A DNA stretch of 64,000 nucleotides from Terriglobia bacterium (GCA_965218585.1 CBDCLE010000017.1:71470-135469); one strand, 5' to 3'. Positions 4,566 through 58,147 are shown, counted from the first letter of the stretch. Numbers and translations: made by a program. Notes: a model not told the origin generated them from the letters alone.

Positions 4566-6347
4566 CTAGTCACCTTGAACCGTTGCGAGCTCCTGCTCCT
4601 TGTACTGCAACTGATAGAGTTTGAAATACAGTCCTCTCTGGGCGAGAAGTTCCTGATGGGAGCCGATCTCCCGGATCCGTCCCGTGTGCATGACGATAAT
4701 TTTGTCACACCGTTGGATCGTCGACAGCCGGTGCGCGATGATTATCGACGTCCGTCCACGCATCAGTCGTTCGATCGCCCTTCCGATCTGGCCTTCGGTC
4801 TCCGTATCCACGCTTGAGGTCGCCTCGTCCAAAATCAGGATCTCCGGATCGTGTGCGAGGGCACGAGCAAAAGCGAGGAGCTGTCGCTGTCCAACGGATA
4901 AGGTGGTCCCCCGCTCGTTGACGGGGTGTTCCAGGCCCTTTTCAAGTGAACGGATGAAAGGCCCCAGATTCACGTCTTCGGTTGCCTGTCGAATTTTTTC
5001 CGTTGATATGTCGGAACCGAGCCGAATGTTGGACTCCAGAGTTCCGGAAAACACGAATACATCCTGCAATACAACGGCAAACCGACGGCGCATGTCGTCC
5101 AGATCCATAGTTGAAATATCGACACTGTCGAGCAGGATGCGGCCCTTCTGGATATCGTAGAAACGCGTCAGAAGACTGGTCACGGTTGTCTTCCCCGCAC
5201 CCGTGTGGCCGACAATCGCAACGGACTCGCTTTGCCGGACACTGAACGAGAGATCTTTCAGTACCCAATCCTCGTCGTTGTAAGCAAACCAGACATCCTG
5301 AAATTCGATCTCTCCTCGAGCTTCGGCGATCGCGCTTGGTGTGGGAGGAGAAAGAACCGTCGGGGCGGTGTCGAGCAGTCTGAAGATCCGTTCGGAACTG
5401 GCCATGGCCGACTGCAGGATGTTGTATTTTTCACTGAGGTCCGCGATGGGACGAAAAAACCGCTGCGAATACTGAATGAAGGCGATCAGGGCTCCCAGGG
5501 TGAGAATACCGGTCAGGACCTGTCCCCCACCGTACCAGATGATCAGCGCAATCGCTGTCGCGCTCAGAAGTTCGACGATGGGATAGAAGATTGCGTAGGC
5601 CATGATGGAATCGAGGTTCGCCTGCAGGTGCTCACGGTTGATGAGGTCGAACCTCTCGGCGCTCTTGCGCTCACGGTTGTAGAGCTGAACCACGCTCATC
5701 CCCGTAATGTGTTCGTGGAGGAAGGCGTTGATTTTCGCGATCGCGATCCGGACACGGCGGTAACCGTCTCTCGCCTTCATCCGGAAAATTGCAGTGGTCA
5801 CGCCGATAAACGGGACGATTGCCAGGACGATCAGGCCCAGACGCCAGTCCAGAACCAGCAGCACGATCATGATGCCGGTCAGAGTAAATATGTCTCCAAA
5901 AACGGAGACGATACCGGCGGAGAACATTTCATTGAGAACATCGACGTCCGTCGTAACGCGCGTGATAAGGCGCCCGACAGGATTGCGATCGAAGAAGCTG
6001 TTCGAGAGGCTCTGGATGTGGTTGAAGATCTGGCGCCTCATATCGAACATGATTCGCTGTCCCGTACTCTGGAGCGTGTAGGTCTGAAGGAAACCAATGC
6101 CATACTTCACTACGAGCAGACCAAAGTAAGCCGAAGCAATCAGCGAGAGCCCACCCATGTTGCCTTGAAGGATGTAGCGATCCACGGCGATCATCGTCAG
6201 CCACGGAAAACTGATTTCAATCAGCGACTCCACCATGATGAGAAGAAACGCGAACAGCACTATCTTGCGGTACGGCAGAAGGTAGACCATCAGCCGCCGC
6301 ATGAGCCGGGAGTCGTATGCTTTGCCTAGTACTTCTTCTTCCTGCAT
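4566..6347 (-). CDS. ABC transporter permease/ATP-binding protein (type I exporter half-transporter, MsbA/LmrCD-like)
   Basis: Six-TM N-terminal domain, Walker A GHTGAGKTT, signature LSVGQRQLLAFARAL, Walker B ILILDEATSSVD. Confidence 0.9.
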   Translation of the reverse strand: MQEEEVLGKAYDSRLMRRLMVYLLPYRKIVLFAFLLIMVESLIEISFPWLTMIAVDRYILQGNMGGLSLIASAYFGLLVVKYGIGFLQTYTLQSTGQRIMFDMRRQIFNHIQSLSNSFFDRNPVGRLITRVTTDVDVLNEMFSAGIVSVFGDIFTLTGIMIVLLVLDWRLGLIVLAIVPFIGVTTAIFRMKARDGYRRVRIAIAKINAFLHEHITGMSVVQLYNRERKSAERFDLINREHLQANLDSIMAYAIFYPIVELLSATAIALIIWYGGGQVLTGILTLGALIAFIQYSQRFFRPIADLSEKYNILQSAMASSERIFRLLDTAPTVLSPPTPSAIAEARGEIEFQDVWFAYNDEDWVLKDLSFSVRQSESVAIVGHTGAGKTTVTSLLTRFYDIQKGRILLDSVDISTMDLDDMRRRFAVVLQDVFVFSGTLESNIRLGSDISTEKIRQATEDVNLGPFIRSLEKGLEHPVNERGTTLSVGQRQLLAFARALAHDPEILILDEATSSVDTETEGQIGRAIERLMRGRTSIIIAHRLSTIQRCDKIIVMHTGRIREIGSHQELLAQRGLYFKLYQLQYKEQELATVQGD

Positions 6348-8376: not shown

Positions 8377-9741
8377 GAGGTCGTTCCAATCGGTGTGTAA
8401 AAAGAGAAGGCGGTGTACGCTTTCGGTGAATCCGAAACCCTAAGCAATCCCGGCAGCAACCGGGAGAAAGGTACACCACCCATGAAGAAGAAGAACATAC
8501 CGGCATCAGTGGCGTCAACGAACGCGTATGAAGGTTTGGAGGACTGGGCGCGATCCCGGGTCCAAGTCTGGCTACAGGAGCTGCTCGAGGACGAAGTCAC
8601 TCAATTTCTGGGTCGGGAAAAGTCGGAGCGGAGTCCGAATCGACGAGGATACCGGAACGGTCACGGGAAGCCGCGACGCTTCGCAATGATGAACGGTACG
8701 ATGGAGGTTCGACGACCTCGGGTTCGAAACACCGCCGAGCGGTTCGAGAGTCAGATCCTGCCGTATTTTCGACGGAAATCGAAACAGCTGGGCGAGCTAC
8801 TTCCCGATCTCTACCTCCACGGTCTGGCCACAGGGGACTTCGAGCAGGCCATGCGCGGACTGCTTGGCGCTGGCGCTCCGTTGTCGCGAGCATCGATCCA
8901 ACGACTGAAATCGACCTGGCAGTTGGAGTATGACGAGTGGGTCCAGCAGGACCTGTCCGGCCTCGAGGTCGTGTACCAGTGGGCAGACAGCTTGTACGTG
9001 AAAGCGGGGATCGCGAAAGAGCGAGCGGCATTGCGGGTGATCATCGGAGCCTTGTCAGACGGGCGCAAAGTGGTGTTGGCCTGTGAGAGCGGGCAGCGGG
9101 AAAGCAAGGAGTCCTGGAGCCGCATTCTGCGCAATCTCCAGAGACGGGGCCTGAAGCTGGGACGGCTGACTGTCGCGGACGGTCACCTGGGCATCTGGTC
9201 CGCGCTGGCCGAGCAACAGCCCCAGGGCCAGGAACAACGCTGCTGGAACCACAAGTCGATCAACGTGGTCGATCATCTGCCGAAGACCGAGCAGCCCGCG
9301 GCCAGACAGCTGCTCCATGGGATGGCCTTCGCGAACTCCCGCGCGGCCTGCGAACGAAAGCGGGATCAGTTCGTCCGCCGATATGAGAAGAACTATCCCA
9401 AAGCGGGTGAGACGCTGTTGCGGGACTGGGACCGGATGATTACTTTCTATGAGTTCCCGAAACAACACTGGGTGCATCTGAGAACAACCAACATCGTCGA
9501 ATCGCCTTTCGACATGGTTCGCCTCCGTACCAACGCCGCTCGCCGATTCAAGCGTGTCGAGAATGCAACGGCAATGATCTGGAAGCTACTACGTGTCGCT
9601 GAGAAGGCTTGGCGACACTTAAAAGGATCCGAACTCTTACAAGAGGTCTATGATGGTCAGCAATTCGCTGACGGCATCAGAGTCGTGATGAAATCGAAGG
9701 CCGCCGCCTGATGACTTTTACACACCTTTTGTAATGACCTC
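8377..9741 (+). mobile_element. IS256-family insertion sequence, complete copy (1365 bp) with imperfect terminal IRs and an 8-bp target-site duplication GGATGAGG
   Basis: IRL GAGGTCGTTCCAATCGGTGTGTAAAAAG versus the reverse complement of IRR GAGGTCATTACAAAAGGTGTGTAAAAG (about 22/26 identical). GGATGAGG occurs at 8369-8376 and again at 9742-9749. The element encodes an IS256/mutator-type transposase. Confidence 0.85.
8482..9711 (+). CDS. IS256-family transposase
   Basis: Typical C-terminal IS256 motifs (DRMITFYEFPKQHWVHLRTTNIVESPF). It is about 99% identical to the transposase at 56901..58130. The MKKK start at 8482 is preferred to the upstream extension at 8413. Confidence 0.9.
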   Translation: MKKKNIPASVASTNAYEGLEDWARSRVQVWLQELLEDEVTQFLGREKSERSPNRRGYRNGHGKPRRFAMMNGTMEVRRPRVRNTAERFESQILPYFRRKSKQLGELLPDLYLHGLATGDFEQAMRGLLGAGAPLSRASIQRLKSTWQLEYDEWVQQDLSGLEVVYQWADSLYVKAGIAKERAALRVIIGALSDGRKVVLACESGQRESKESWSRILRNLQRRGLKLGRLTVADGHLGIWSALAEQQPQGQEQRCWNHKSINVVDHLPKTEQPAARQLLHGMAFANSRAACERKRDQFVRRYEKNYPKAGETLLRDWDRMITFYEFPKQHWVHLRTTNIVESPFDMVRLRTNAARRFKRVENATAMIWKLLRVAEKAWRHLKGSELLQEVYDGQQFADGIRVVMKSKAAA

Positions 9742-13039: not shown

Positions 13040-13272
13040 ACGAGGCTCTCTTCTATCACGGGGTCCGACCCAACCAAAAACGTTTCCCGTATAGTGGATC
13101 AATCCCGAACAGGTAAACTAGTGATCTGTAGCACCCGTATCGGGCCCAGTGTTGCGGTCAAACGGCATTGGATTCTAGGAGTCACCGACGAGGAAATGCC
13201 CTGCATTGTGAGGAGCTGACGACAACGAAGACGATGCCATTTCGCAGCAATCGCTGGCAGATGGAGAGGCAG

Positions 13273-24573: not shown

Positions 24574-25431
24574 ATGAACTTCGGCATTTCAACCTATGCT
24601 TTCGGCGACGAGGAAATTTCCCCCCGGCTCCTGGATCACCTTCTCCGGGCGGGCTTCACGCGGATCGAACTATTTGCCAACCGCCCGCACTGGAACTACC
24701 ACGACAGAGGCCTCACAAAAGAACTGGCCCGATGGTTTCAGACCAACGATGTCGAGCCTCCGTTCCTGCATCTTCCGTTCTTCGAACAAAAAGGAAAAGG
24801 CGACGTTCGACCGATCTCAGCATTGGCAAACAACGAACGCGACCGGAAACACGCTATCGACGAAGTCAAGCGGGCACTCGAATTCACGGACCTGCAATCT
24901 GTAGCTCACGTCGTCGTGCACCTGGGTGTGCCCCGGCAGGAGTTCACTCCTCTCCTGTTCGAGCATGCATACGCTCTTATGCGACATATTTCGGAATTTG
25001 CCGGCGTAAACATCGTTATAGAAAACATCCCGAACGAAATATCGACGATAGAACGCATTGCCGAGTTCCTGAATGTGTCCCAACTTCCCGAGATTCGAAT
25101 CTGCTACGATACCGGCCACGGGCGCCTTCAGGGTCCGCTTCCCCAACTGGATGGAGTTGCCCAGATTCACCTCAGTGACAACAACGGCAGCCTGGACGAC
25201 CATCTGTGGCCGTTCGAAGGACAATTAAACTGGCCCGAGTTCGTCCGAGAACTTGTAAGATCAGGCTTTGCGGGCCCGATGGTGTTCGAAGCACTGAATC
25301 CGGACGTCGATCGCGGCCGGGAAGCTCGAAGCCGTTTGCAAGATTTGATCGACGAGGCGAGTCGGTCGGACGAGGAGTTTGCTAGAAAATACCGGCTGGA
25401 CCTGAACAACGATGACAACGACCTACATTGA
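24574..25431 (+). CDS. sugar phosphate isomerase/epimerase (xylose isomerase-like TIM barrel)
   Basis: Typical AP-endo2/XylA-like TIM-barrel sequence ([10 protein letters not shown]..., HLG..., ENIP..., TGHG). Confidence 0.7.
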
Positions 25432-26713
25432 AGATATCGGCAAGCACGTCGGCCAAGAAGTAACCGTTCGTGGTTGGCTTCACAATAAACGTTCGAGCGG
25501 AAAGCTCCGCTTTCTCATCGTTCGCGACGGTACGGGCTACATACAGGCCGTCGTCTTCAAGAAAGCCGTACCGGAAGAAACTTTCCAGGCCGCAACCGAT
25601 CTGACCCACGAGTCTTCGTTCACGGTAACGGGAACTGTTCGAGCCGACGAACGGGCACCCGGCGGGCACGAAATGGATGTCACCGCTATCGAGGCACTTC
25701 AGATCGTAGGGGCGGAGGAAGAATTCCCGATCACACCCAAGGAACACGGCATCGAGTTCCTTATGGACCACCGCCATCTCTGGATTCGTTCCAGGCGCCA
25801 ACGTGCAATCCTCAAGGTCCGGCACGAAATCATCCGCGCTGCGCGCGACTTCCTCGACGACGATGGGTTCACGCTCTGCGACACGCCCATCCTGACCCCG
25901 GCAGCCTGCGAAGGAACGACGACGCTTTTCGAGGTGGACTACTTTGACGAAAATGCCTTCCTCGCTCAATCGGGACAACTTTATGGCGAGGCTACTGCAG
26001 CGGCCCTGGGTAAGGTCTACAATTTCGGTCCCACCTTCAGGGCCGAAAAATCGAAGACGCGTCGTCATCTGACCGAATTCTGGATGGTCGAACCCGAAGT
26101 GGCCTACGCCACGGTAGAAGACATGATGGACCTCTCAGAAAGATACATCAGTCACATCGTCGGGCGTGTCCTCGATCGCAGAGGAGAAGAACTCAATGAC
26201 CTCGAGCGCGACGTATCTACTCTCGAGAAGATTTCCCCGCCGTTCCCCCGTATTTCCTACGACGAGGCCATCGAGATTCTTCAGAAAAACGGTTCAGAAA
26301 TTCAATGGGGAAGCGATTTCGGAGGAACGGACGAGACGATCCTGTCCGAACACTTTGAAAAACCTGTCCTGATCCACCGGTATCCGTCGGCGATCAAGGC
26401 CTTCTACATGGAACCAGACGCCGAAAGGCCCGAAGTTGCCCTGTGTCTGGACGTTCTGGCGCCGGAAGGTTACGGGGAGATCATCGGCGGGGGGCAACGA
26501 ACCGCCAACCATCAACTCCTTCTCGAGCGAATCGAGGAGCACGATCTCCCACGAAAGGATTTCGAGTGGTACCTGGATTTGAGGAAGTTCGGATCGGTAC
26601 CCCATTCCGGATTTGGAATGGGAATTGAACGCGTGGTCGCGTGGATCTGCCGTCTGGATCACGTGAGGGAAACAATCCCTTTTCCGCGGATGCTCTACAG
26701 GCTGAGCCCATAG
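25412..26713 (+). CDS. asnS: asparagine--tRNA ligase (class IIb aaRS; an Asp-type cannot be fully excluded)
   Basis: 433 aa, N-terminal OB anticodon-binding domain, class II motifs ([19 protein letters not shown]). Confidence 0.65.
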
Positions 26714-26726
26714 CCGTACTCTTACA

Positions 26727-26800
26727 CTGACGCCTCGGCTTCGCCTCGTTGTCCACCCGCACCGGAGGCCGGTGCGGGTCCTCCCCCTTGGTCAAAGTAT
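26727..26800 (+). repeat. ~75-nt intergenic repeat element, copy A (conserved 30-nt 5' block plus GC hairpin); copy B is at 32330..32400
   Basis: Both copies share ctgacgcctcggctYcgcctcgttgtccac, followed by a hairpin. Copy A is cccgcaccgg-agg-ccggtgcggg. Copy B is cctgcaccc-tcggaa-gggtgcggg, with compensatory changes and a wobble. Confidence 0.6.
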
Positions 26801-27077
26801 CGATGAGTCCTGAAAGGGCTTCCAATCAGTATGATTGCGTGGGGGGACCGGACCGGCATTCGAGTTCCCGAGCAACATCGAATCGCGAAAAGGTCAGTGC
26901 ACTCTCGACGGTTTGGGTTATTGGGGGACGGTGGGCCCGGCGCTAATGACGTCAGCGAGCTGCGCCGGTCGTTCGGCCACGATGGCCGTCTGAACAACCG
27001 AGCGCAATCTTTCAGCCAACGGGGAGGGGCCTCCATCTCTAAGCGTCGACCGAAGGACGAGTGGCAACTCTCGGAAT

Positions 27078-27100
27078 GGACAGAGCTGTCCGCCCCTTTT
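27078..27100 (+). terminator. Rho-independent terminator-like hairpin + T-run (GGACAGAGCUGUCC GCCCCUUUU)
   Basis: 6-bp GC stem ggacag/ctgtcc with a 3-nt loop, followed by gcccctttt. It sits about 365 nt downstream of the asnS stop and abuts the convergent coaE stop. Confidence 0.5.
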
Positions 27101-27101
27101 C

Positions 27102-27710
27102 CTACTCTCCCACCAACCTCACCAGCTCAGCGTAAACCTCTTCGACACGCCTCCGTGTATCTTCCAGCGACCCCGAATTATCCACAACGAAATCAGCGTG
27201 TCCTGCCTTTTCCTCGAGAGGCATCTGGGATTCAATCCTGGCCTCAATGGCCTCGGGCGTCAAACCGGGGCGCCCAGCAAGACGGTTCCGTTGCTGCTGG
27301 GGCTGGCAGGTCACCACCACCAGTCGATCGAATCGTTTGTAGCCTCCTGACTCGACCATCAACGCTGCATCGACAATAGCAATGGCGTTCGGATCTTCAC
27401 GTCGGACACTTTCCAGAAATGCGTCCTGGCGCGCCTTGACTGCAGGATGCACAAGCGAATTCAGTGTTTCTCGTTGGGAACGCTCACTGAAGACGATGGC
27501 AGCCAGCTTTGACCTGTCGATCCCTCCTCCCTCATCGAGAATCCCGGGACCGAATTCGGCAACGACCGCCTCATGCACTTCTTCGCCGGCTTCAAATAAC
27601 TCGTGTGTGATCTGGTCAGAATCGATCAGGCGACAACCCAGTGCGACGAACATCTCCCCGACGCGCGTCTTGCCACAGCCGATCCCTCCTGTGAGACCGA
27701 CGCTCAGCAC
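27102..27710 (-). CDS. coaE: dephospho-CoA kinase
   Basis: P-loop GLTGGIGCGKT. The ORF has an N-terminal extension; the start is likely GTG/ATG near 27710. Confidence 0.8.
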   Translation of the reverse strand: MLSVGLTGGIGCGKTRVGEMFVALGCRLIDSDQITHELFEAGEEVHEAVVAEFGPGILDEGGGIDRSKLAAIVFSERSQRETLNSLVHPAVKARQDAFLESVRREDPNAIAIVDAALMVESGGYKRFDRLVVVTCQPQQQRNRLAGRPGLTPEAIEARIESQMPLEEKAGHADFVVDNSGSLEDTRRRVEEVYAELVRLVGE

Positions 27711-27981
27711 GAGTGACCTGTACCACCCATATTGGGACCAGCGCCGATGGGTCCTGCGGGTGAGATCGCGGCGGGAGACGGAAGTCGATGTTTTCGCATC
27801 GACGACGGCTCGCAACAAAGATATCGCCCGCAATCCCCATCGGCCCGGAGGGTTGAGGCGAAACGGCGCCGTCTTCGTTGTCGTCGACTCGTCGGAATGA
27901 GGAGCATTCCCTCCTCATCGACTCCTAGAATCCGGAGTCGTTTGGCCGCAACGCTGGTCCCAATATGGGTGGTACAGGTCA

Positions 27982-28920
27982 CTAGATGTCTCTCCGCAGG
28001 CGGGCTCCGGTTATCGTGTTCTTCATCAGTACCGCTATCGTCATGGGTCCGGCGCCACCGGGAACAGGAGACAACATCGACGCAACTTCCAGTGCATCCC
28101 GCTCATGAACGTCGCCCGCCCAGATGTAGCCCCTCTTGTCGAATTGGTCGAGCCGCGGCGACTCTTCGCCGAACAACCGCTCGACCTCGTCCCGATCCGT
28201 CACCTGATTCGTCCCCACGTCAATGACGACGGCACCCGGCTTTATGAAATCGCCGGTCACCATCGCGAGGCGACCAATTGCTGCCACGACGATATCGGCC
28301 TCTCGTGTGACCGAAGCAAGATCCCTCGTCCGCGAGTGACAGATCGTGACCGTCGCGTGCCGGTGCATGAGCAGCATCGCCATGGGTTTGCCTACATCGT
28401 CACTACGGCCCAACACAACTGCCCGTGCTCCTTCGATCTGCACCCCGGACCTCTGAAGCATCTCCAGAACACCCAGAGGTGTACAGGCCACGAGGCCCTG
28501 GTGACCGAGAACAAGTGAGCCAATATTGGAGGAATGAAATCCATCGACGTCCTTGAGGGGAGCGACAGCCTCCAGAACCCTGTGTTTATCAACCTGCTCA
28601 GGCAGAGGCAACTGGACGAGAATGCCGTCGATCGAGTCGTCCTTATTCAGTTCGTCGATACGTTCAAGCAGTTCGGTCTCCCTGATGTCCTCGGGAAGAT
28701 CCAGTTTGAGGCTCCTCATCCCCAGCCGCTCGCACATTCGCGCTTTCATGCCGACATATGAAGCCGATGCCGGGTTGCTACCGACCAGGACGACCGCCAG
28801 ACCGGGTGTGACCCCTTTTCTCTTCAACATCTCAACGTCGGCGGCGACCTCTTCCTGTATCTGCTTGGCGATCCCGGTTCCGTTGATTAAGGTAGCTGCC
28901 ACAAAAAAACCTCTCTCCAT
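27982..28920 (-). CDS. folD: bifunctional methylenetetrahydrofolate dehydrogenase / methenyl-THF cyclohydrolase
   Basis: YVGMKARMCERLG, GILVQLPLP, and an NAD(P)-binding C-terminal domain. Confidence 0.9.
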   Translation of the reverse strand: MERGFFVAATLINGTGIAKQIQEEVAADVEMLKRKGVTPGLAVVLVGSNPASASYVGMKARMCERLGMRSLKLDLPEDIRETELLERIDELNKDDSIDGILVQLPLPEQVDKHRVLEAVAPLKDVDGFHSSNIGSLVLGHQGLVACTPLGVLEMLQRSGVQIEGARAVVLGRSDDVGKPMAMLLMHRHATVTICHSRTRDLASVTREADIVVAAIGRLAMVTGDFIKPGAVVIDVGTNQVTDRDEVERLFGEESPRLDQFDKRGYIWAGDVHERDALEVASMLSPVPGGAGPMTIAVLMKNTITGARLRRDI

Positions 28921-28972
28921 AAAATAGATCCCATCATACACTGCTTCCCAGTGGGTTAATTGGCTCCACAGA

Positions 28973-31081
28973 TTGACGATGACGACCCTGTTTACACTAC
29001 TGATAGCGATTACGCTCCCAACCGGTTTGATCGAGCGCGCGCTCGATTTCTTTGAGCGGGGAGACTATCGGACCTCGGCCGAACTGCTGGATGAGGCCGC
29101 TGCGGTTGATCCCGAAGAGTTTCAACTAAACAACCTGCACTACCTGCGCGGACGGATCGCTCTGGAAGAAGAAGATTGGTCGCGGGCGGAATCTGAGTTC
29201 GCACAAGTATCCGAGAGTAGCGTTCTCGGTGACCTTGCCTTGTGGCACCGCGGGCGCGTTGCACTTCGAGACAGTCGTAGTGGGGACACACTTCGGTTTC
29301 TGACCCTGCTGGGACCAGGTTTCCCCGACGCGCTCCGTCTCGAATTGGCCGAGGGCGCCCCAGAGGATGTCGCCCTGACCATTTACCGGTCGGTGTCGGG
29401 CCGAGAGTCGCAGTGGAAGCAGGCGTCGATCCTGGACGACGAAGACGCGATGTGGCAGCTCCTGAACCTCAGCCGCGGCGACGAATTCGCCCTTACAGGC
29501 AGCCAGAAGACTGGATGGAAGACCCGCGACTCCGGCCGAAAGCCTCCGGTTGGCGAAAACATTCCACACTCACCGCATCTTCGATCGGGCCGAAGCCATC
29601 TATTCGACGCTGCTCGAAGATCGCTCCGCGATCGGTGCCCAGGCCCATTACGAGTTGGGCCGGACTTACTTTCAAAGACTACGGTATGACGATGCCATCG
29701 CCGTATATCGGGCCACGACCGAAAGATTTCCCGACACCGACTGGGAACGCGAGGCGGATGAGCAGATCCCGCCGAATTACTGGCGCAGCCTGGACTACCC
29801 CAGGGCCATCGCGGCCTATGAGGCACTGATCGACAATACGACGATGACCCGGACCTCTATCAATCGGCGCTCCGCGACATGATCGACATCCGTCGCGCGA
29901 TGGGCGAGGTGGACCAAGCGCAGCGTTTGATCGACCAGGCACTGGCTGCGAGCCCCGATAGGAGGGACCGGGCCGTCCTCACCTTCACCCGGGCCAAGAT
30001 CCATCATGGCGAAGGACAGTACGCCGAAGCGCTCGGATCGTTTAGCCAGCTTCGCGGCGTGCGAACAGGCCGGGCAGCTAACGGAACGGATCAGACCGAA
30101 GTGCGGTTTTTTGAAGCGGCCAGCCTCGAAGCGCTAGGGCGCACCGACGAAGCACATGCGATCTGGACCGAGCTTTCCGAAGAGCCCTTCGGTTACTACG
30201 GCCTTCGATCTTTCGAGAAACTCGGCGACAGCTCAGCTCCTTCCGCCACACTGCAACAGATGGTCTCGAGGGCCAGGGAGACTCCTGCGGCCTCTCTATG
30301 CGGCGAGGCCTCCAACCTGGATTTCATCGATGTGGTTCGGCAGCGACGACTCTCAAGGACACGTGGTTTTCTCACACCGGGATCTGTAGAAACAGACCTG
30401 GTGGGAGAGCTGGTCTTTCTGCGTCAATGGGACGAAGCGTTCTACTGGGCAAACCGTGTCGCCTCCAGATGGAGAGACCAGGCACTGGCCGATTTGGCAT
30501 ATCTCGCTTCAGATTTCAGGCGCTCGATGCTTTACGCGGACCGTTTGAGACCGGTCGCCGACATAGGGTTGTTCTCACTGGACGCGGAGTATTCGCCTGA
30601 GACACGGGTTCTCATGGACATGCTCTACCCTACGGCGTTCCGGGATATCGTCTGTCGAGAAGCCCAAGCCGCGGCCGTCAATCCGCTCTGGTTACACGCC
30701 ATCATGTGGCAGGAGAGCCGATACAACCCCGAGGCACTCTCCAGCGCGTCGGCCCGAGGCCTGATGCAGTTCATCCCGGAAACAGCGACTCGCATCGCCA
30801 ACGAAGTTGGGCTGACGGACTTCATGCTGGACGACCTGTACCGGTCCGAGATCAGCATTCGCCTCGGCGCGCGTTACTGGGCCGAACTGATTGAAGTGTT
30901 CGGAAGTCCCGAACTGGCACTGGCCGCATACAACGGCGGTGAAAGAAACGTCGAGCGTTGGCGGGCAAAATCAGAGCTGGAAGATACGGAAAGCTTCGTC
31001 TCCGACATCGGTTTCACCCAAACGAAGGCCTACGTTCGCGAAGTCTTCGGACTCTTCGCGAAATATGCCCATCTTCTTTAG
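28973..31081 (+). CDS. soluble lytic murein transglycosylase (Slt-like: N-terminal superhelical TPR-like domain + C-terminal SLT domain), reading frame broken twice
   Basis: SLT catalytic block AIMWQESRYNPEALSSASARGLMQFIP...AAYNGG lies in the frame 29879..31081. The N-terminal helical domain is spread over the frames 28973.., 29550.. and 29879.., with single-base frame changes near 29500 and near 29840. Confidence 0.75.
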
Positions 31082-31105
31082 CGGATCTCGGCTCCGGACA
31101 TTTTC

Positions 31106-31881
31106 ATGAACAAGCCATTCAACTGGAAGCTTTTCTTCATCGTCTGGGGTGCGGCCCTGGTTGGGGCGGTGGCGATCATACCGTTTGCCCTAACAATTCA
31201 GGCCCCTCTCCTGGAGGCCACTGATCTCCCACTGCCCCTATGGCAGCTCATCGTTCTTGGATTGGTTCAAAGTATGGTGTTGGTGAGCCTGGCTGCCGGC
31301 ATAGGCCTCTTGCTTGCCGGCAAGGTCGGTCTTGGGCTTCCGCTGGTGGAAGCCTGGCTACGGAAAGAACCTCTCCAGAAACAGGCGGTACTAGGCCTGC
31401 CGTAATCGGCGGCGTTGCCGCTGCATTAGTCATCGTCGGCCTCGAACTGGCCCTCTTCGCTCCCCTGCTCGGAGGGAGCGGCATCACGTTCCCCGAAAAC
31501 GCACAGCCTGCCGTTTGGCAGGGCCTTCTGGCGGCGTTTTATGGCGGAATCACCGAAGAAGTTCTGGTTCGCCTCTTCCTGATGACCTTACTGGTCTGGA
31601 TCGGCTCTCTGCTGACACGGTCCCAGCACGGCTCCGTAGTCCTGTGGATTGCAATCGTTCTGGCTGCAGTCGCATTCGGACTGGGTCACCTTCCGGCAAC
31701 TGCAGCGTTGGGAATACCGCTGAACGGGCTGGTCATCACCCGAGCGATCGTGCTCAACGGAGTGGGAGGATTGTTGTTTGGTTGGTTGTATGCCAGACGC
31801 GGACTCGAAAGCGCCGTGGTCGCGCACTACTCGGCCGACATCATGCTCCTCGTTGTATTGCCTCTGACAGGACTCTTGTAG
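31106..31881 (+). CDS. CPBP family intramembrane metalloprotease (CAAX protease/Abi-like), frame broken once near 31390
   Basis: Motifs EExxxR (ITEEVLVR), FxxxH (FGLGH) and HYSAD, and multiple TM helices. Two overlapping ORFs, 31106..31405 and 31240..31881. Confidence 0.7.
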
Positions 31882-31898
31882 CTTCCGGCGAATACGAA

Positions 31899-32282
31899 CT
31901 ACTGCCCACGCACACGGTCAGGCGTGATCGTGATGACGACGCGAACCTCACCCGGCGGGTCCAGGTCGTACCGGTCTTTTCCCAGGAAGCGCTGGGCCAG
32001 CGAGTCGACAAACGCGTTGTCGATGTCGTCTTCTATAGTGGCCTTGCCGCGAATCTCGACGTAGTGTCCTCCGTTGTCGGGATCGGAGACCTCGATCGTG
32101 ACCGTTGGATTCGCACTCAGGTTCTTGAACTTCTGCCGGCTCTTGCCCGTGCTTATCTTGACAACATCGCCGTCGCGAGCGACAAGGACGGGTGTGATCT
32201 GGATGCTGCCGTTCGGCATAAGAGTCCCGACGTGACCGATGGTTTTCTTCTCAAAAATGTCATTGAACTGCGCTGGGATCAT
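31899..32282 (-). CDS. pyridoxamine 5'-phosphate oxidase family protein (FMN-binding split barrel / PPOX class F420-dependent-like)
   Basis: TIGHVGTLMPNGSIQITPV...VKISTGKSRQKFKNLSANP pattern typical of the PNPOx-like fold. Confidence 0.55.
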   Translation of the reverse strand: MIPAQFNDIFEKKTIGHVGTLMPNGSIQITPVLVARDGDVVKISTGKSRQKFKNLSANPTVTIEVSDPDNGGHYVEIRGKATIEDDIDNAFVDSLAQRFLGKDRYDLDPPGEVRVVITITPDRVRGQ

Positions 32283-32329
32283 TCCTGTCTCCTTCTTCTA
32301 TTGATGCCGTAATTTGTGCAGCGACTATT

Positions 32330-32400
32330 CATATTATTCTGACGCCTCGGCTCCGCCTCGTTGTCCACCTGCACCCTCGGAAGGGTGCGGGTCCTTCTCC
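32330..32400 (+). repeat. copy B of the intergenic repeat element (see 26727..26800)
   Basis: ctgacgcctcggctccgcctcgttgtccac + hairpin cctgcaccc/gggtgcggg, located between the thrC stop and the PPOX-family gene start. Confidence 0.6.
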
Positions 32401-32432
32401 GGGATCAATTAAACCCTCCGCACGATCATCCG

Positions 32433-33614
32433 TTAATCTCCCAGCGAAGCCTCCCATGCCTCGCCATACTTGTATCCGCTTCCCGTATTGAACAGAACCA
32501 CGGTCTCGTCGGGTTGGATCTTTCCCTGCCCGACAAGTTTCTCCACGGCCACGAGCCCGGCACCGCCCTCCGGTGCGGCAAAGACACCCTCGAGTCGGGC
32601 CATGTTCCGGCACGCCGTCATCGTCTCCTCGTCGGTGGCGGCAACAGCCGCACCCTGGCTCTCATAGAGGGCGTCCAGAATGAGAAAGTCGCCCAGCGCC
32701 TTGGGTACGCGGAGACCCGCGGCCAGCGTGGCGGCGTTGTCCCAGAACTCACTGCTGTCGCTGTGCTGCTCGAACGCTCTTACGATAGGGGCACAGCCGG
32801 CCGCCTGCGCCGAAATCATGCGTGGACGCCTGGAGTCTATCCAACCCATGGTTTCCATCTCCTCGAAGGCCTTCCACATTCCGATCATGCCGACACCCCC
32901 GCCGGTGGGATAGACAATTACGTCCGGCAGTCTTCCCCCAAACCTCTCCCAGAGCTCGTAACCCATCGTCTTCTTGCCTTCGATCCGGTACGGCTCCTTG
33001 AGAGTAGACACTTCGAACCAACCCTCCCGGTCCTTATGCTCCGCAATGAACTTTCCACAATCAGAAATCAGGCCGTCGATCTCGCGCACATCCGCCCCGA
33101 AGGCACGGGACTCGAGGACATTGGCTGCCGGTGTGTCCCCGGGCATCGCGATCACGCAACCCAGTCCCGCCTTTGCCGCGTATGCTGCCGCCGCCCCCCC
33201 GGCGTTTCCCGCCGTGGGGACGGCCAGGGTCGTCGCTCCAAGAGCTTTGGCCATCGTAACCGCTGCCGAAAGTCCACGGGCCTTGAACGAGCCTGTCGGA
33301 TTGAGTCCCTCGTCCTTTATGTAAAGACCACCGAGTCCCAGGTGTTCACCGAGTCGGCGAGCGTGAACCAGGGGCGTCATGCCCTCCCCCAGGCTAACCG
33401 GTGGTCCGTCGGGCAGGACTTCTTCGTACCGCCACATCGTGTGGGTGCGCGTTTGAAGGGTGTCCAGTGTCAGCGTCTCTTTTGCAATCGACAGGTCATA
33501 GCGGGCAAGCAGGGGTGAGTTGCAGACGGGGCACAGGTTCTGTAAGGAGGAGTATGCGACCTCTTCCCCGCAAGCCGAACGTGAACACTGAAGGTTTCGA
33601 AGAGTGGAAGACAT
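32433..33614 (-). CDS. thrC: threonine synthase
   Basis: N-terminal Zn-ribbon CSRSACGE...CPVCNS, the PLP-lysine motif SFKARGLSAAV, and a GNAGGA loop. Confidence 0.88.
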   Translation of the reverse strand: MSSTLRNLQCSRSACGEEVAYSSLQNLCPVCNSPLLARYDLSIAKETLTLDTLQTRTHTMWRYEEVLPDGPPVSLGEGMTPLVHARRLGEHLGLGGLYIKDEGLNPTGSFKARGLSAAVTMAKALGATTLAVPTAGNAGGAAAAYAAKAGLGCVIAMPGDTPAANVLESRAFGADVREIDGLISDCGKFIAEHKDREGWFEVSTLKEPYRIEGKKTMGYELWERFGGRLPDVIVYPTGGGVGMIGMWKAFEEMETMGWIDSRRPRMISAQAAGCAPIVRAFEQHSDSSEFWDNAATLAAGLRVPKALGDFLILDALYESQGAAVAATDEETMTACRNMARLEGVFAAPEGGAGLVAVEKLVGQGKIQPDETVVLFNTGSGYKYGEAWEASLGD

Positions 33615-56870: not shown

Positions 56871-58147
56871 GAGGTCATTACAAAAGGTGTGTAAAAGTCA
56901 TCAGGCGGCGGCCTTCGATTTCATCACGACTCTGATGCCGTCAGCGAATTGCTGGCCATCATAGACCTCTTGTAAGAGTTCGGATCCTTTTAAGTGTCGC
57001 CAAGCCTTCTCAGCGACACGTAGTAGCTTCCAGATCATTGCCGTTGCATTCTCGACACGCTTGAATCGGCGAGCGGCGTTGGTGCGGAGACGAACCATGT
57101 CGAAGGGCGATTCGACGATGTTGGTCGTTCTCAGATGCACCCAGTGTTGTTTCGGGAACTCATAGAAAGTAATCATCCGGTCCCAGTCCCGCAACAGCGT
57201 CTCACCCGCTTTGGGATAGTTCTTCTCATATCGGCGGACGAACTGATCCCGCTTTCGTTCGCAGGCCGCGCGGGAGTTCGCGAAGGCCATCCCATGAAGC
57301 AGCTGTCTGGCCGCGGGCTGCTCGGTCTTCGGCAGATGATCGACCACGTTGATCGACTTGTGGTTCCAGCAGCGTTGTTCCTGGCCCTGGGGCTGTTGCT
57401 CGGCCAGCGCGGACCAGATGCCCAGGTGACCGTCCGCGACAGTCAGCCGTCCCAGCTTCAGGCCCCGTCTCTGGAGATTGCGCAGAATGCGGCTCCAGGA
57501 CTCCTTGCTTTCCCGCTGCCCGCTCTCACAGGCCAACAGCACTTTGCGCCCGTCTGACAAGGCTCCGATGATCACCAGCAATGCCGCTCGCTCTTTCGCG
57601 ATCCCCGCTTTCACGTACAAGCCGTCTGCCCACTGGTACACGACCTCGAGGCCGGACAGGTCCTGCTGGACCCACTCGTCATACTCCAACTGCCAGGTCG
57701 ATTTCAGTCGTTGGATCGATGCTCGCGACAACGGAGCGCCAGCGCCAAGCAGTCCGCGCATGGCCTGCTCGAAGTCCCCTGTGGCCAGACCGTGGAGGTA
57801 GAGATCGGGAAGTAGCTCGCCCAGCTGTTTCGATTTCCGTCGAAAATACGGCAGGATCTGACTCTCGAACCGCTCGGCGGTGTTTCGAACCCGAGGTCGT
57901 CGAACCTCCATCGTACCGTTCATCATTGCGAAGCGTCGCGGCTTCCCGTGACCGTTCCGGTATCCTCGTCGATTCGGACTCCGCTCCAACTTTTCCCGAC
58001 CCAGAAATTGAGTGACTTCGTCCTCGAGCAGCTCCTGTAGCCAGACTTGGACCCGGGATCGCGCCCAGTCCTCCAAACCTTCATACGCGTTCGTTGACGC
58101 CACTGATGCCGGTATGTCCTTCTTCTTCATGGGTGGTGTACCTTTCT
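56871..58147 (-). mobile_element. IS256-family element, second copy (inverted relative to copy 1), missing about 88 bp of its left end including IRL
   Basis: Right end GAGGTCATTACAAAAGGTGTGTAAAAG is identical to copy 1. Identity to copy 1 stops 20 nt upstream of the transposase ATG (at 58147). No target duplication can be assessed. Confidence 0.8.
56901..58130 (-). CDS. IS256-family transposase (copy 2, ~99% aa identity to 8482..9711)
   Basis: Same protein as copy 1, with about 5 substitutions (e.g. EKSERS>EKLERS, ADSLYVK>ADGLYVK). Confidence 0.9.
   Translation of the reverse strand: MKKKDIPASVASTNAYEGLEDWARSRVQVWLQELLEDEVTQFLGREKLERSPNRRGYRNGHGKPRRFAMMNGTMEVRRPRVRNTAERFESQILPYFRRKSKQLGELLPDLYLHGLATGDFEQAMRGLLGAGAPLSRASIQRLKSTWQLEYDEWVQQDLSGLEVVYQWADGLYVKAGIAKERAALLVIIGALSDGRKVLLACESGQRESKESWSRILRNLQRRGLKLGRLTVADGHLGIWSALAEQQPQGQEQRCWNHKSINVVDHLPKTEQPAARQLLHGMAFANSRAACERKRDQFVRRYEKNYPKAGETLLRDWDRMITFYEFPKQHWVHLRTTNIVESPFDMVRLRTNAARRFKRVENATAMIWKLLRVAEKAWRHLKGSELLQEVYDGQQFADGIRVVMKSKAAA

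Follow-up and report, generated by a model that had tools for sequence, protein, structure and literature searches.

The 64,000 nucleotides of Terriglobia bacterium DNA analysed here (GCA_965218585.1 CBDCLE010000017.1:71470-135469; in the following, the window) contain two intergenic copies, A and B, of a repeat consisting of a conserved 30-nt block and a GC-rich hairpin. With a probability of roughly 0.7, both are old remnants of a dispersed, non-coding miniature inverted-repeat transposable element (MITE) of about 325 nt that is found in Terriglobia (Acidobacteriota). The copies belong to a family with many members in related genomes, members of this family have moved in the past, their hairpins are conserved as structures, and the hairpin modules evolve slowly. 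While the element itself is previously undescribed, its kind is familiar: it is small, ends in inverted repeats, duplicates a CTAG/CTAR target and occurs in many copies, at sites that are filled in some genomes and empty in others, all of which characterizes it as a MITE. Five of six features expected of a MITE were found, while those of a repetitive extragenic palindrome (REP), of an Rfam family and of an intrinsic terminator were not. Both window copies are truncated and unable to move any longer. More tentatively, a structural role at gene 3' ends may be assigned to the hairpins, as suggested by their position, orientation bias and slow evolution.

Within the window, the block CTGACGCCTCGGCTYCGCCTCGTTGTCCAC has exactly two matches, both on the plus strand, at 26727-26756 (Y = T) and 32339-32368 (Y = C). 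No match was obtained in 100 dinucleotide-preserving shuffles, even with three mismatches allowed. A first-pass annotation of this DNA had reported two copies differing at one position; this and the site at 26727 are correct, but the second site had been placed at 32330, 9 bases too low. Each block is followed by a GC-rich hairpin showing paired changes between the copies, just as described there. Its statement that these hairpins are not canonical intrinsic terminators is borne out as well, since no T-run follows either of them and a terminator consensus scan flags none there. In addition to block and hairpin, copies A and B share about 5 nt to the left and about 20 nt to the right. The repeat as described is real, but the full unit is about 325 nt long rather than approximately 60 nt.

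Copies outside the window were collected with an exact scan for the 21 specified bases of the block centre, using one representative genome per species, which yielded 31 loci, 4 of them from Brevundimonas (L numbers below denote these and further loci). Exact-block copies number 11 in the Terriglobia metagenome-assembled genome (MAG) CBDCKF01 and 11 in the Acidobacteria MAG JAJEEE01, in addition to diverged ones; further copies come from four other Terriglobia/Acidobacteria MAGs and from one MAG that is labelled Gammaproteobacteria (L001). A covariance model of the two hairpins P1 and P2, described below, detected 67 modules in 38 sources within 361 kb of sampled DNA, only 2 of which lie in the window. 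The view of a two-copy repeat is therefore no longer tenable, as the block is multi-copy in related genomes. A metagenome scan with a loose gapped pattern added at least three true copies (L067, L104, L158). Its output (L040-L159) consists mostly of an unrelated and very common 24-mer, GACGCCTCG(CTTTG/CGTTG)CTCGTTGTCC, on many contigs labelled human gut. The Brevundimonas MAG loci (L003, L009, L019, L031) were treated as unrelated, since they share only the 22-mer GCCTCGGCTGCGCCTCGTTGTC and their flanks are unrelated; this 22-mer, which could be a coincidence or a shared fragment, belongs in two alphaproteobacterial MAGs to another repeated palindrome (CCCCGGATCG...TCCGGGG). Rfam, to which the first-pass annotation had pointed, holds no family accounting for the repeat: neither the window nor any of six loci gave a match at the gathering threshold, and a cutoff of E ≤ 10 yielded only chance matches for one window copy and one full copy (microRNA, small nucleolar RNA, Bacillaceae-1 small RNA). 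Likewise, blastn searches against plasmids and phages and a scan of viral contigs returned no similar DNA, and no paper was found on this element or mentioning both Terriglobia and MITEs.

Full copies of about 325 nt (e.g., L035:16217-16541) are filled by four hairpins. In the orientation of the window's plus strand, alignment of the acidobacterial copies gives a pyrimidine-rich left arm ending in GATCATCTTCTTACTCTAGAC, followed by P1, P2, a variable linker, P3 (CTCGCCATC-AGGA-TGATGGCGAG), P4 (CCGGTCGTTCAGAC-AGGA-TGTCTGAATGAACGACCG), then AGCGAAATCTTA and the right end. The ends form inverted repeats of about 20 nt with the consensus TGTCCTGAGTCAGAAGTTCG, and the complete element folds back on itself. 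No conserved open reading frame (ORF) was noticed in full copies, the coding potential of which was not formally scored. P1, corresponding to the 30-nt block, is a small hairpin with a variable tip between the conserved words CTGACGC and TTGTCCAC. As judged from copies that were not chosen by the exact block, it occurs in a standard form (CTCGGC-TCC-GCCTCG), a shortened 28-nt form lacking one base in each arm (CTCGC-TCC-GCTCG), forms with 4-nt loops (TACC, GGGG), a form of about 40 nt carrying an insertion, and a 'type 2' form with the perfect stem GGCGGCC-CGGA-GGCCGCC. Standard P1 contains two unpaired positions, which would be U.C/C.U on the plus strand and tandem G.A/A.G on the minus strand. 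They do not vary in this form, and Watson-Crick pairs take their place in type 2 alone. In JAJEEE01, modules are also arranged in arrays (L006:5906-6730, L015:500-1160, L011, L012 and L014); the array with a period of 227 nt comprises 3-4 units with 93% matches, each unit consisting of a standard module and an oppositely oriented type 2 module with a perfect P1 stem.

Past mobility is documented by complete copies and by empty sites. The terminal inverted repeats read TGTTGTGAGTCACAAATTCG versus TGTCCTGAGTCAGAAGTTCC in L035 and TGTCCTCGGTTAAAAGT versus TGCCCTCGATTATAAGT in L028, and 15-17 of 18-20 positions match in L004 and L024. The clean copy in L035, ...cgggCTAG|TGTTGTGAGTCAC...CTCAGGACA|CTAG, is located between convergent OsmC and MFS genes. 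In six related loci these two genes overlap by CTAA, which provides both stop codons, leaving no spacer; hence, the element was inserted into that word in L035, the only locus in which the junction is occupied. The shared CTAA is found in several Terriglobia (L160-L165, around 2980 or 2914). A 28-nt scrap resembling a left end precedes the MFS stop in L035, so the history of this junction is not one clean event. L035, L023 and L030 carry CTAG at either end, L028 and L004 have CTAG/CTAA, and a clean left target copy is absent in L024 and L005; the duplicated target may comprise either 4 bp (CTAG) or 2 bp (TA). The suggestion of a REP/MITE-like element made in the first-pass annotation is supported by the multiple copies in relatives, by the inverted repeats and surrounding CTAG of full copies, and by sites that are empty in relatives. 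The complete copy in L028, flanked by CTAG and CTAA, harbours within its left arm a nested insertion sequence (IS) of the IS5 family. This IS of about 810 bp (L028:6804-7610) encodes DUF4096 and DDE_Tnp_1 in two overlapping frames, has the ends GGCGTGTTAACACTAA and is flanked by CTAG, so that CTAG-targeting transposases are present in the same genome. As parent of the MITE it was rejected: it shares the CTAG target, but its terminal repeat differs.

Presence and absence can also be followed at the locus of copy A, between asnS and coaE, where gene order is conserved in relatives that were reached through AsnS matches. The spacer measures 388 nt in the window and contains the element. In L039 (AsnS about 100% identical) it is identical to the window, in L038 (95%) the element is present minus an internal segment of about 118 nt, and in L033 and L034 (90%) a 293-nt spacer harbours the element together with its left arm. 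At 87% AsnS identity, the spacer of L035 is empty (64 nt). L036 and L037 (86%) carry a different MITE there, an element of about 245 nt (L036:9303-9550, also in L037) with perfect 28-nt inverted ends GGGACAGTCTACTCAATACACCGAATTC. The asnS-coaE spacer hence seems to be a landing place of several MITE families.

The extent of both window copies follows from comparison with the family (Table 1). For copy A, the module hidden Markov model (HMM) and the covariance model match 26715-26786, and the right-arm HMM matches 26955-27015. About 240 nt more of family-specific sequence continue to about 27015; copy A accordingly occupies most of the asnS-coaE spacer, and the orthologous copies in L038 and L033 can be aligned with it along the whole length. 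Its extra internal segment holds a second, degenerate piece resembling a right end, and its P4 with tail is 96% identical to L038 and 89% to L033. Copy B, which lacks the right half because of the thrC stop at 32433, has an identical orthologue in L039. The difference between the hairpins of A and B is one between paralogous family members rather than a change at these loci, and it reflects a family-wide requirement for the P2 stem.

Table 1 Repeat copies, hairpins and flanking genes in the window
Feature	Position	Strand	Basis or description
asnS	25412-26713	+	Pfam tRNA-synt_2 and anticodon-binding domain; reads in sense into copy A
Element copy A	26722-27015	+	Left-truncated: without left arm and left inverted repeat
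P1 of copy A (30-nt block)	26727-26756	+	Exact pattern match; CTGACGC, small hairpin CTCGGC-TTC-GCCTCG, then TTGTCCAC
P2 of copy A (GC hairpin)	26755-26779	+	ACCCGCACCGG-AGG-CCGGTGCGGGT; 11 bp, loop AGG
P3 remnant of copy A	26823-26837	+	CAATCA-GTA-TGATTG; alignment to family and L038
Extra segment of about 118 nt within copy A	26837-26954	+	Absent from the 95% relative L038
P4 of copy A (long hairpin) and tail	26965-27015	+	CCGGTCGTTCGGCC-ACGA-TGGCCGTCTGAACAACCG, tail AGCGCAATCTTTCAG; right-arm HMM match
coaE	27102-27707	-	Pfam CoaE; convergent with asnS, reads into copy A from the right
PNPOx-family gene	31899-32282	-	Pfam PNPOx_N; 56 nt beyond the copy B block
Element copy B	about 32300-32411	+	Keeps P1 and P2 with a left-arm remnant and about 20 nt of tail
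P1 of copy B (30-nt block)	32339-32368	+	Exact pattern match
P2 of copy B (GC hairpin)	32367-32392	+	ACCTGCACCCT-CGGA-AGGGTGCGGGT; 11 bp including one T.G, loop CGGA
thrC-like PALP enzyme	32433-33614	-	Pfam PALP; reads antisense into copy B

Conservation of the structure extends far beyond these two copies. In an alignment of 65 distinct modules, which was fitted to its covariance model and thus leans towards it, 90.3% of cells pair compared with 81.2% in shuffles, and the covariation score is 0.215 compared with 0.074 in shuffles (0 of 500 reach the observed value) and at most 0.046 in slid controls. P2 is paired in 96.5% of cases across these modules and shows changes on both sides in 8 of its 10 pairs. 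An independent count among 52 copies gave 23 distinct P2 stems, nearly all of them fully paired. The conservation of structure, from which the first-pass annotation had suggested selection on the basis of the two window copies, holds across the family. The stems of P2 indicate no strand preference, given that wobble and A.C mismatches are balanced (6 versus 9). The loops, in contrast, are informative as to the strand: read on the plus strand, GGA is contained in 56 of the 65 distinct P2 loops, representing at least 15 different loop sequences, and TCC in 1. P3 and P4 carry CAGGATG loops, and the standard P1 loop has GGA on the opposite strand. Upstream of P2, the plus strand is rich in C and poor in G, and P2 is succeeded by a pyrimidine tract; these P2 tails (e.g., TCCTTCT, TTGTTTT) seldom contain 5 T in 8 positions, and a scan for the intrinsic terminator consensus at P2 in the window and in L013 flagged nothing.

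The hairpin modules furthermore evolve slowly at two orthologous loci. Since copy A is truncated on the left in the same way in the window and in L038, both inherited one insertion. Between them, 54 of 296 fourfold degenerate sites differ (42/208 in asnS, 12/88 in coaE), compared with 4 of 100 module positions (51/53 identical in P1-P2, 45/47 in P4 and tail; Fisher p = 2e-4), and the P2-P3 linker is identical at 33 of 47 positions (70%). Compared with L033, the window differs at 57% of fourfold sites, with an identity of 89-91% in the modules and of 31% in the linker. The second locus, downstream of propionyl-CoA carboxylase (PCC), MeaB and epimerase genes, is occupied in three species (L016, L022, L029) by copies with the same degenerate left arm. 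Here, fourfold sites differ by 35-54% and linkers are 34-57% identical (30-57% with the flanks included), while P1 is identical at 28 of 28 positions in all three species and P2 has undergone two both-sided changes with pairing kept. P4'+P3' matches at 70 of 73 positions between L016 and L029; this part has been replaced in L022, in which it is only about 45% identical to the other two. A toxin-antitoxin pair (Unstab_antitox and a ParE-like toxin, L022:7084-7511) lies beside or within that copy and replaces its P3-P4 part. The modules may have been kept either by selection or by gene conversion among copies. As the hairpin core remains nearly unchanged beside diverged neutral DNA, it probably has some function.

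The gene context given in the first-pass annotation, with copy A in the 3' region of asnS and copy B between thrC and a PPOX-family gene, antisense to both, is confirmed by Pfam. Copy A begins 13 nt behind the asnS stop (26713), and copy B is antisense to both of its neighbours because the thrC-like and PNPOx genes are both encoded on the minus strand. For coaE, the mechanical ORF extends to 27833, but the protein comprises 198-201 amino acids in relatives (188 in the L038 call). The first stable structures beyond the respective stops are P1-P2 for asnS (plus strand), P4 for coaE (minus) and P2 for thrC (minus). Gene calls with a simple method based on GC content at third codon positions, which reproduces the known window genes, were used for the orientation of all copies relative to their neighbours. 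With the element read as plus, 20 copies lie between convergent genes and 9 between divergent ones; 13 have two antisense neighbours, as copy B does, and 1 has two sense neighbours. A hand tally of the non-array loci gives 11, 3, 6 and 0, respectively. Enrichment between convergent genes is expected of insertion into stop-codon words. That hardly any copy lies in sense between co-directional genes suggests a plus orientation that is polar or otherwise harmful when a gene lies downstream, and a role of the hairpins at 3' ends would explain this rarity.

By analogy with IS5/IS630-type elements, a DDE transposase supplied in trans probably inserted the copies into CTAG or CTAR words, which often would have been the stop codons between convergent genes. 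After insertion, ends and linkers would decay, with P1, P2 and P4 held nearly constant. Being presumably transcribed within the 3' ends of neighbouring genes, the hairpins might then act at the RNA level and be retained as transcript shapers, be it through 3'-end protection, pausing, polarity or factor binding.

Several observations weigh against old MITE remnants with retained hairpins. Neither window copy possesses paired inverted repeats, A lacking the left and B the right end, and no recognisable target duplications flank them. An autonomous element with matching inverted repeats was not found in a search that covered the neighbourhoods of the copies rather than whole genomes, and the 113 neighbouring proteins contain no recurrent transposase. 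The core of the element is more conserved than its terminal repeats, which is unusual for a MITE, and the arrays in JAJEEE01 are tandem with a period of 227-284 nt and two module types alternating in opposite orientation, so that they look more like a cluster of REPs or bacterial interspersed mosaic elements (BIMEs) than a classic MITE. With respect to function, the element shows no consensus resembling a promoter (sigma-70) or a terminator, and gene conversion instead of selection could explain the slow evolution of P1, P2 and P4. The gene calls behind the orientation counts are heuristic, and some of the counted copies are array members that are not independent of each other. Copy B is partly dispensable, as L038 lacks P2 at this locus: the block is kept there with one substitution, and P2 together with about 49 nt has been lost by a deletion between CC(T/C)GCAC repeats. 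Copy B hence looks less protected than copy A. In copy A itself, both AGGA loops are mutated, to AGTA in P3 and to ACGA in P4; L038 retains both AGGA loops, with CAGGATG in P3.

Among the alternatives, each of which is supported less well than a MITE remnant, a functional structured RNA is the least improbable. According to this explanation, the P1-P2 core, together with P3 and P4, would be the functional entity that was merely spread by the transposon ends, its strand-specific loops binding protein or RNA: GGA/AGGA on the plus strand in a CsrA/Rsm-like manner, UCCU on the minus strand resembling an anti-Shine-Dalgarno sequence. Covariation and strong pairing speak for it, as do the P2 loops with their GGA on the plus strand, the CAGGATG loops of P3 and P4, a rate of module change that is 4-5 times slower than at fourfold sites at both orthologous loci, even in copies without ends, and the invariant unpaired positions of P1, which would make tandem G.A pairs on the minus strand. 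ACAGGAUGU matches the consensus for CsrA from in vitro selection (SELEX). In a variant of this explanation, the P1-P2 core and P4 would constitute a domesticated module of structured RNA or single-stranded DNA that is selected at gene 3' ends as a binding platform. Strand-specific GGA/UCCU loops and invariant tandem G.A would then point to a specific partner, either a CsrA-like regulator or Shine-Dalgarno/anti-Shine-Dalgarno pairing, and a mobile element would have linked dozens of unrelated genes in a single post-transcriptional circuit. Both versions appear unlikely, and equally so. Against a structured RNA speak the missing Rfam match, the missing promoter or terminator consensus and the P2 mismatches favouring neither strand. 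Moreover, the standard P1 loop motif is on the opposite strand to those of P2-P4, within the window the AGGA loops are gone from copy A, and P3 and P4 altogether from copy B, and L038 lacks P2 at locus B. A search of 460 kb of sampled DNA revealed no CsrA, which is uninformative as to the hosts.

Less probable still are REP/BIME-like single-stranded DNA elements, in which P1-P2 would have been mobilised by a tyrosine (HUH) transposase of the type of REP-associated tyrosine transposases (RAYTs) or those associated with terminal inverted repeats (TIRs), the TIRYTs. The hairpins with their conserved flanking words, the clusters and arrays of JAJEEE01 with inverted module pairs, and an orientation bias such as replication-strand-specific insertion can produce would agree with this possibility, and Acidobacteria do possess a distinct group of TIR-associated tyrosine transposases (PMC3733652). 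IS200/IS605-type transposition, however, does not produce a unit of about 325 nt with terminal inverted repeats and duplicated CTAG. Furthermore, P2 exhibits neither the GTAG/CGTC tag geometry nor the 8-9-bp, A/T-started stems of tagged REPs (PMC3733652), and, of the 164 families listed for the 113 neighbours, the 25 that recur most do not include Y1_Tnp.

It is improbable that the block represents a double-stranded DNA site for a host protein, present in many intergenic regions and recognised through direct repeats (GCCTCG-N5-GCCTCG) or the DnaA-box-like TTGTCCAC. Although the sequence of the block is invariant across genera, unpaired positions included, and two GCCTCG words lie 11 nt apart, the variants alter the spacing (28-, 31-, about 40- and 19-nt forms) or have a perfect palindrome, all of them retaining the hairpin. 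A DnaA box was rejected since changes in the CAC of TTGTCCAC (to CAG, CCC or CAT) are matched by changes in the part of the P2 stem with which it pairs. Three further candidates were discarded: an ECF-type promoter (GGACAA-N16-CGTC), as the length of P1 ranges from 19 to about 40 nt among copies; a small minus-strand ORF ending at the shared TAA, as the hairpins are unequal in length (1 nt) and the reading frame is not maintained; and an att site derived from a transfer RNA (tRNA), as a scan for tRNA and transfer-messenger RNA found none in the window. Finally, chance similarity or two unrelated intrinsic terminators, to which only the position downstream of genes would point, are refuted by the absence of matches in 100 shuffles, by the flanks shared among dozens of related copies and by the missing T-run.

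Other mobile DNA is present in the window as well. The element at 27712-27983, 272 nt long with perfect 32-nt inverted ends AGTGACCTGTACCACCCATATTGGGACCAGCG, lies between folD and coaE and probably is a second, unrelated MITE. The two genes abut or overlap in L032-L036, and a gap of about 270-330 nt separates them in the window, L038 and L039. An end similar to that of this element occurs in L035 around 4818-4849, beside an IS256-family transposase, and 133 nt of the window (13118-13250) are 78% complementary to 27853-27985. Two inverted IS copies at 8377-9741 and 56871-58147 are 99% identical over 1277 nt and have 26-nt inverted ends; the former encodes a Mutator/IS256-family transposase of 432 amino acids (8413-9711). 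Between copies A and B, a lytic transglycosylase with TPR and SLT domains is divided into two ORFs (28973-29689 and 29879-31081) in the window and in the near-identical L039, and forms a single gene of about 699 amino acids in the relatives L032-L038. This split could represent a frameshift, a pseudogene or an assembly error.

If both copies are MITE remnants, the asnS-coaE and thrC-PNPOx spacers are transposon relics and not dedicated regulatory regions. To our knowledge, almost no repeat families or small RNAs have been described for Terriglobia, which are abundant soil bacteria. The family provides a marker by which a recurrent unit of about 325 nt can be annotated and masked in acidobacterial MAGs, and it offers a clear case of insertion into the overlapping CTAA/CTAG stop codons of convergent genes. 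Its unusually strongly conserved core bears on the possible co-option of MITE hairpins as 3'-end elements in a phylum with scarce canonical terminators.

Among known systems, MITEs derived from IS5/IS630 (Nezha, Correia/NEMIS, RUP) share most with the element: they are small and non-coding, have terminal inverted repeats of about 20 nt and a duplicated CTAG or TA-containing target, are multi-copy and intergenic, vary in presence at orthologous sites and fold as one long hairpin. In contrast to them, no parent IS was found among the neighbours of the element, its two-hairpin core is more conserved than its ends, tandem arrays exist in one genome, and no similarity to plasmid, phage or viral DNA was obtained. 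In behaviour, the closest system is the enterobacterial repetitive intergenic consensus (ERIC), or intergenic repeat unit (IRU), likewise an imperfect palindromic intergenic repeat retained at orthologous loci. ERIC sequences are probably transcribed and persist at orthologous loci across species with more conservation than neutrality would predict, and orientation-dependent effects have been proposed for them. For P1, P2 and P4, identities of 96-100%, or maintained pairing, contrast with fourfold sites differing by 18-54% at the two orthologous loci. The element differs from ERIC in its unrelated sequence and phylum, in being about 2.5 times longer, and in its clear terminal repeats and CTAG duplication. 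With REP/BIME sequences and GTAG/CGTC-tagged palindromes it has in common GC-rich hairpins lying mostly between convergent or co-directional genes, and clusters of inverted neighbours in one genome. REPs are units of 20-40 bp with a terminal tetranucleotide tag that are linked to RAYT genes (PMC3733652), whereas the present hairpins lie within a 325-nt unit bounded by inverted repeats. Here, P2 is flanked by TTGTCC and GGGTCC, and CGTC occurs only in GCGTCAG, about 20 nt off across P1. Finally, CsrB/RsmZ-type RNAs also display several hairpins with GGA/AGGA loops on one strand, but this is a resemblance only: the element has three such loops per unit, no visible promoter or terminator of its own, and the architecture of a mobile element.

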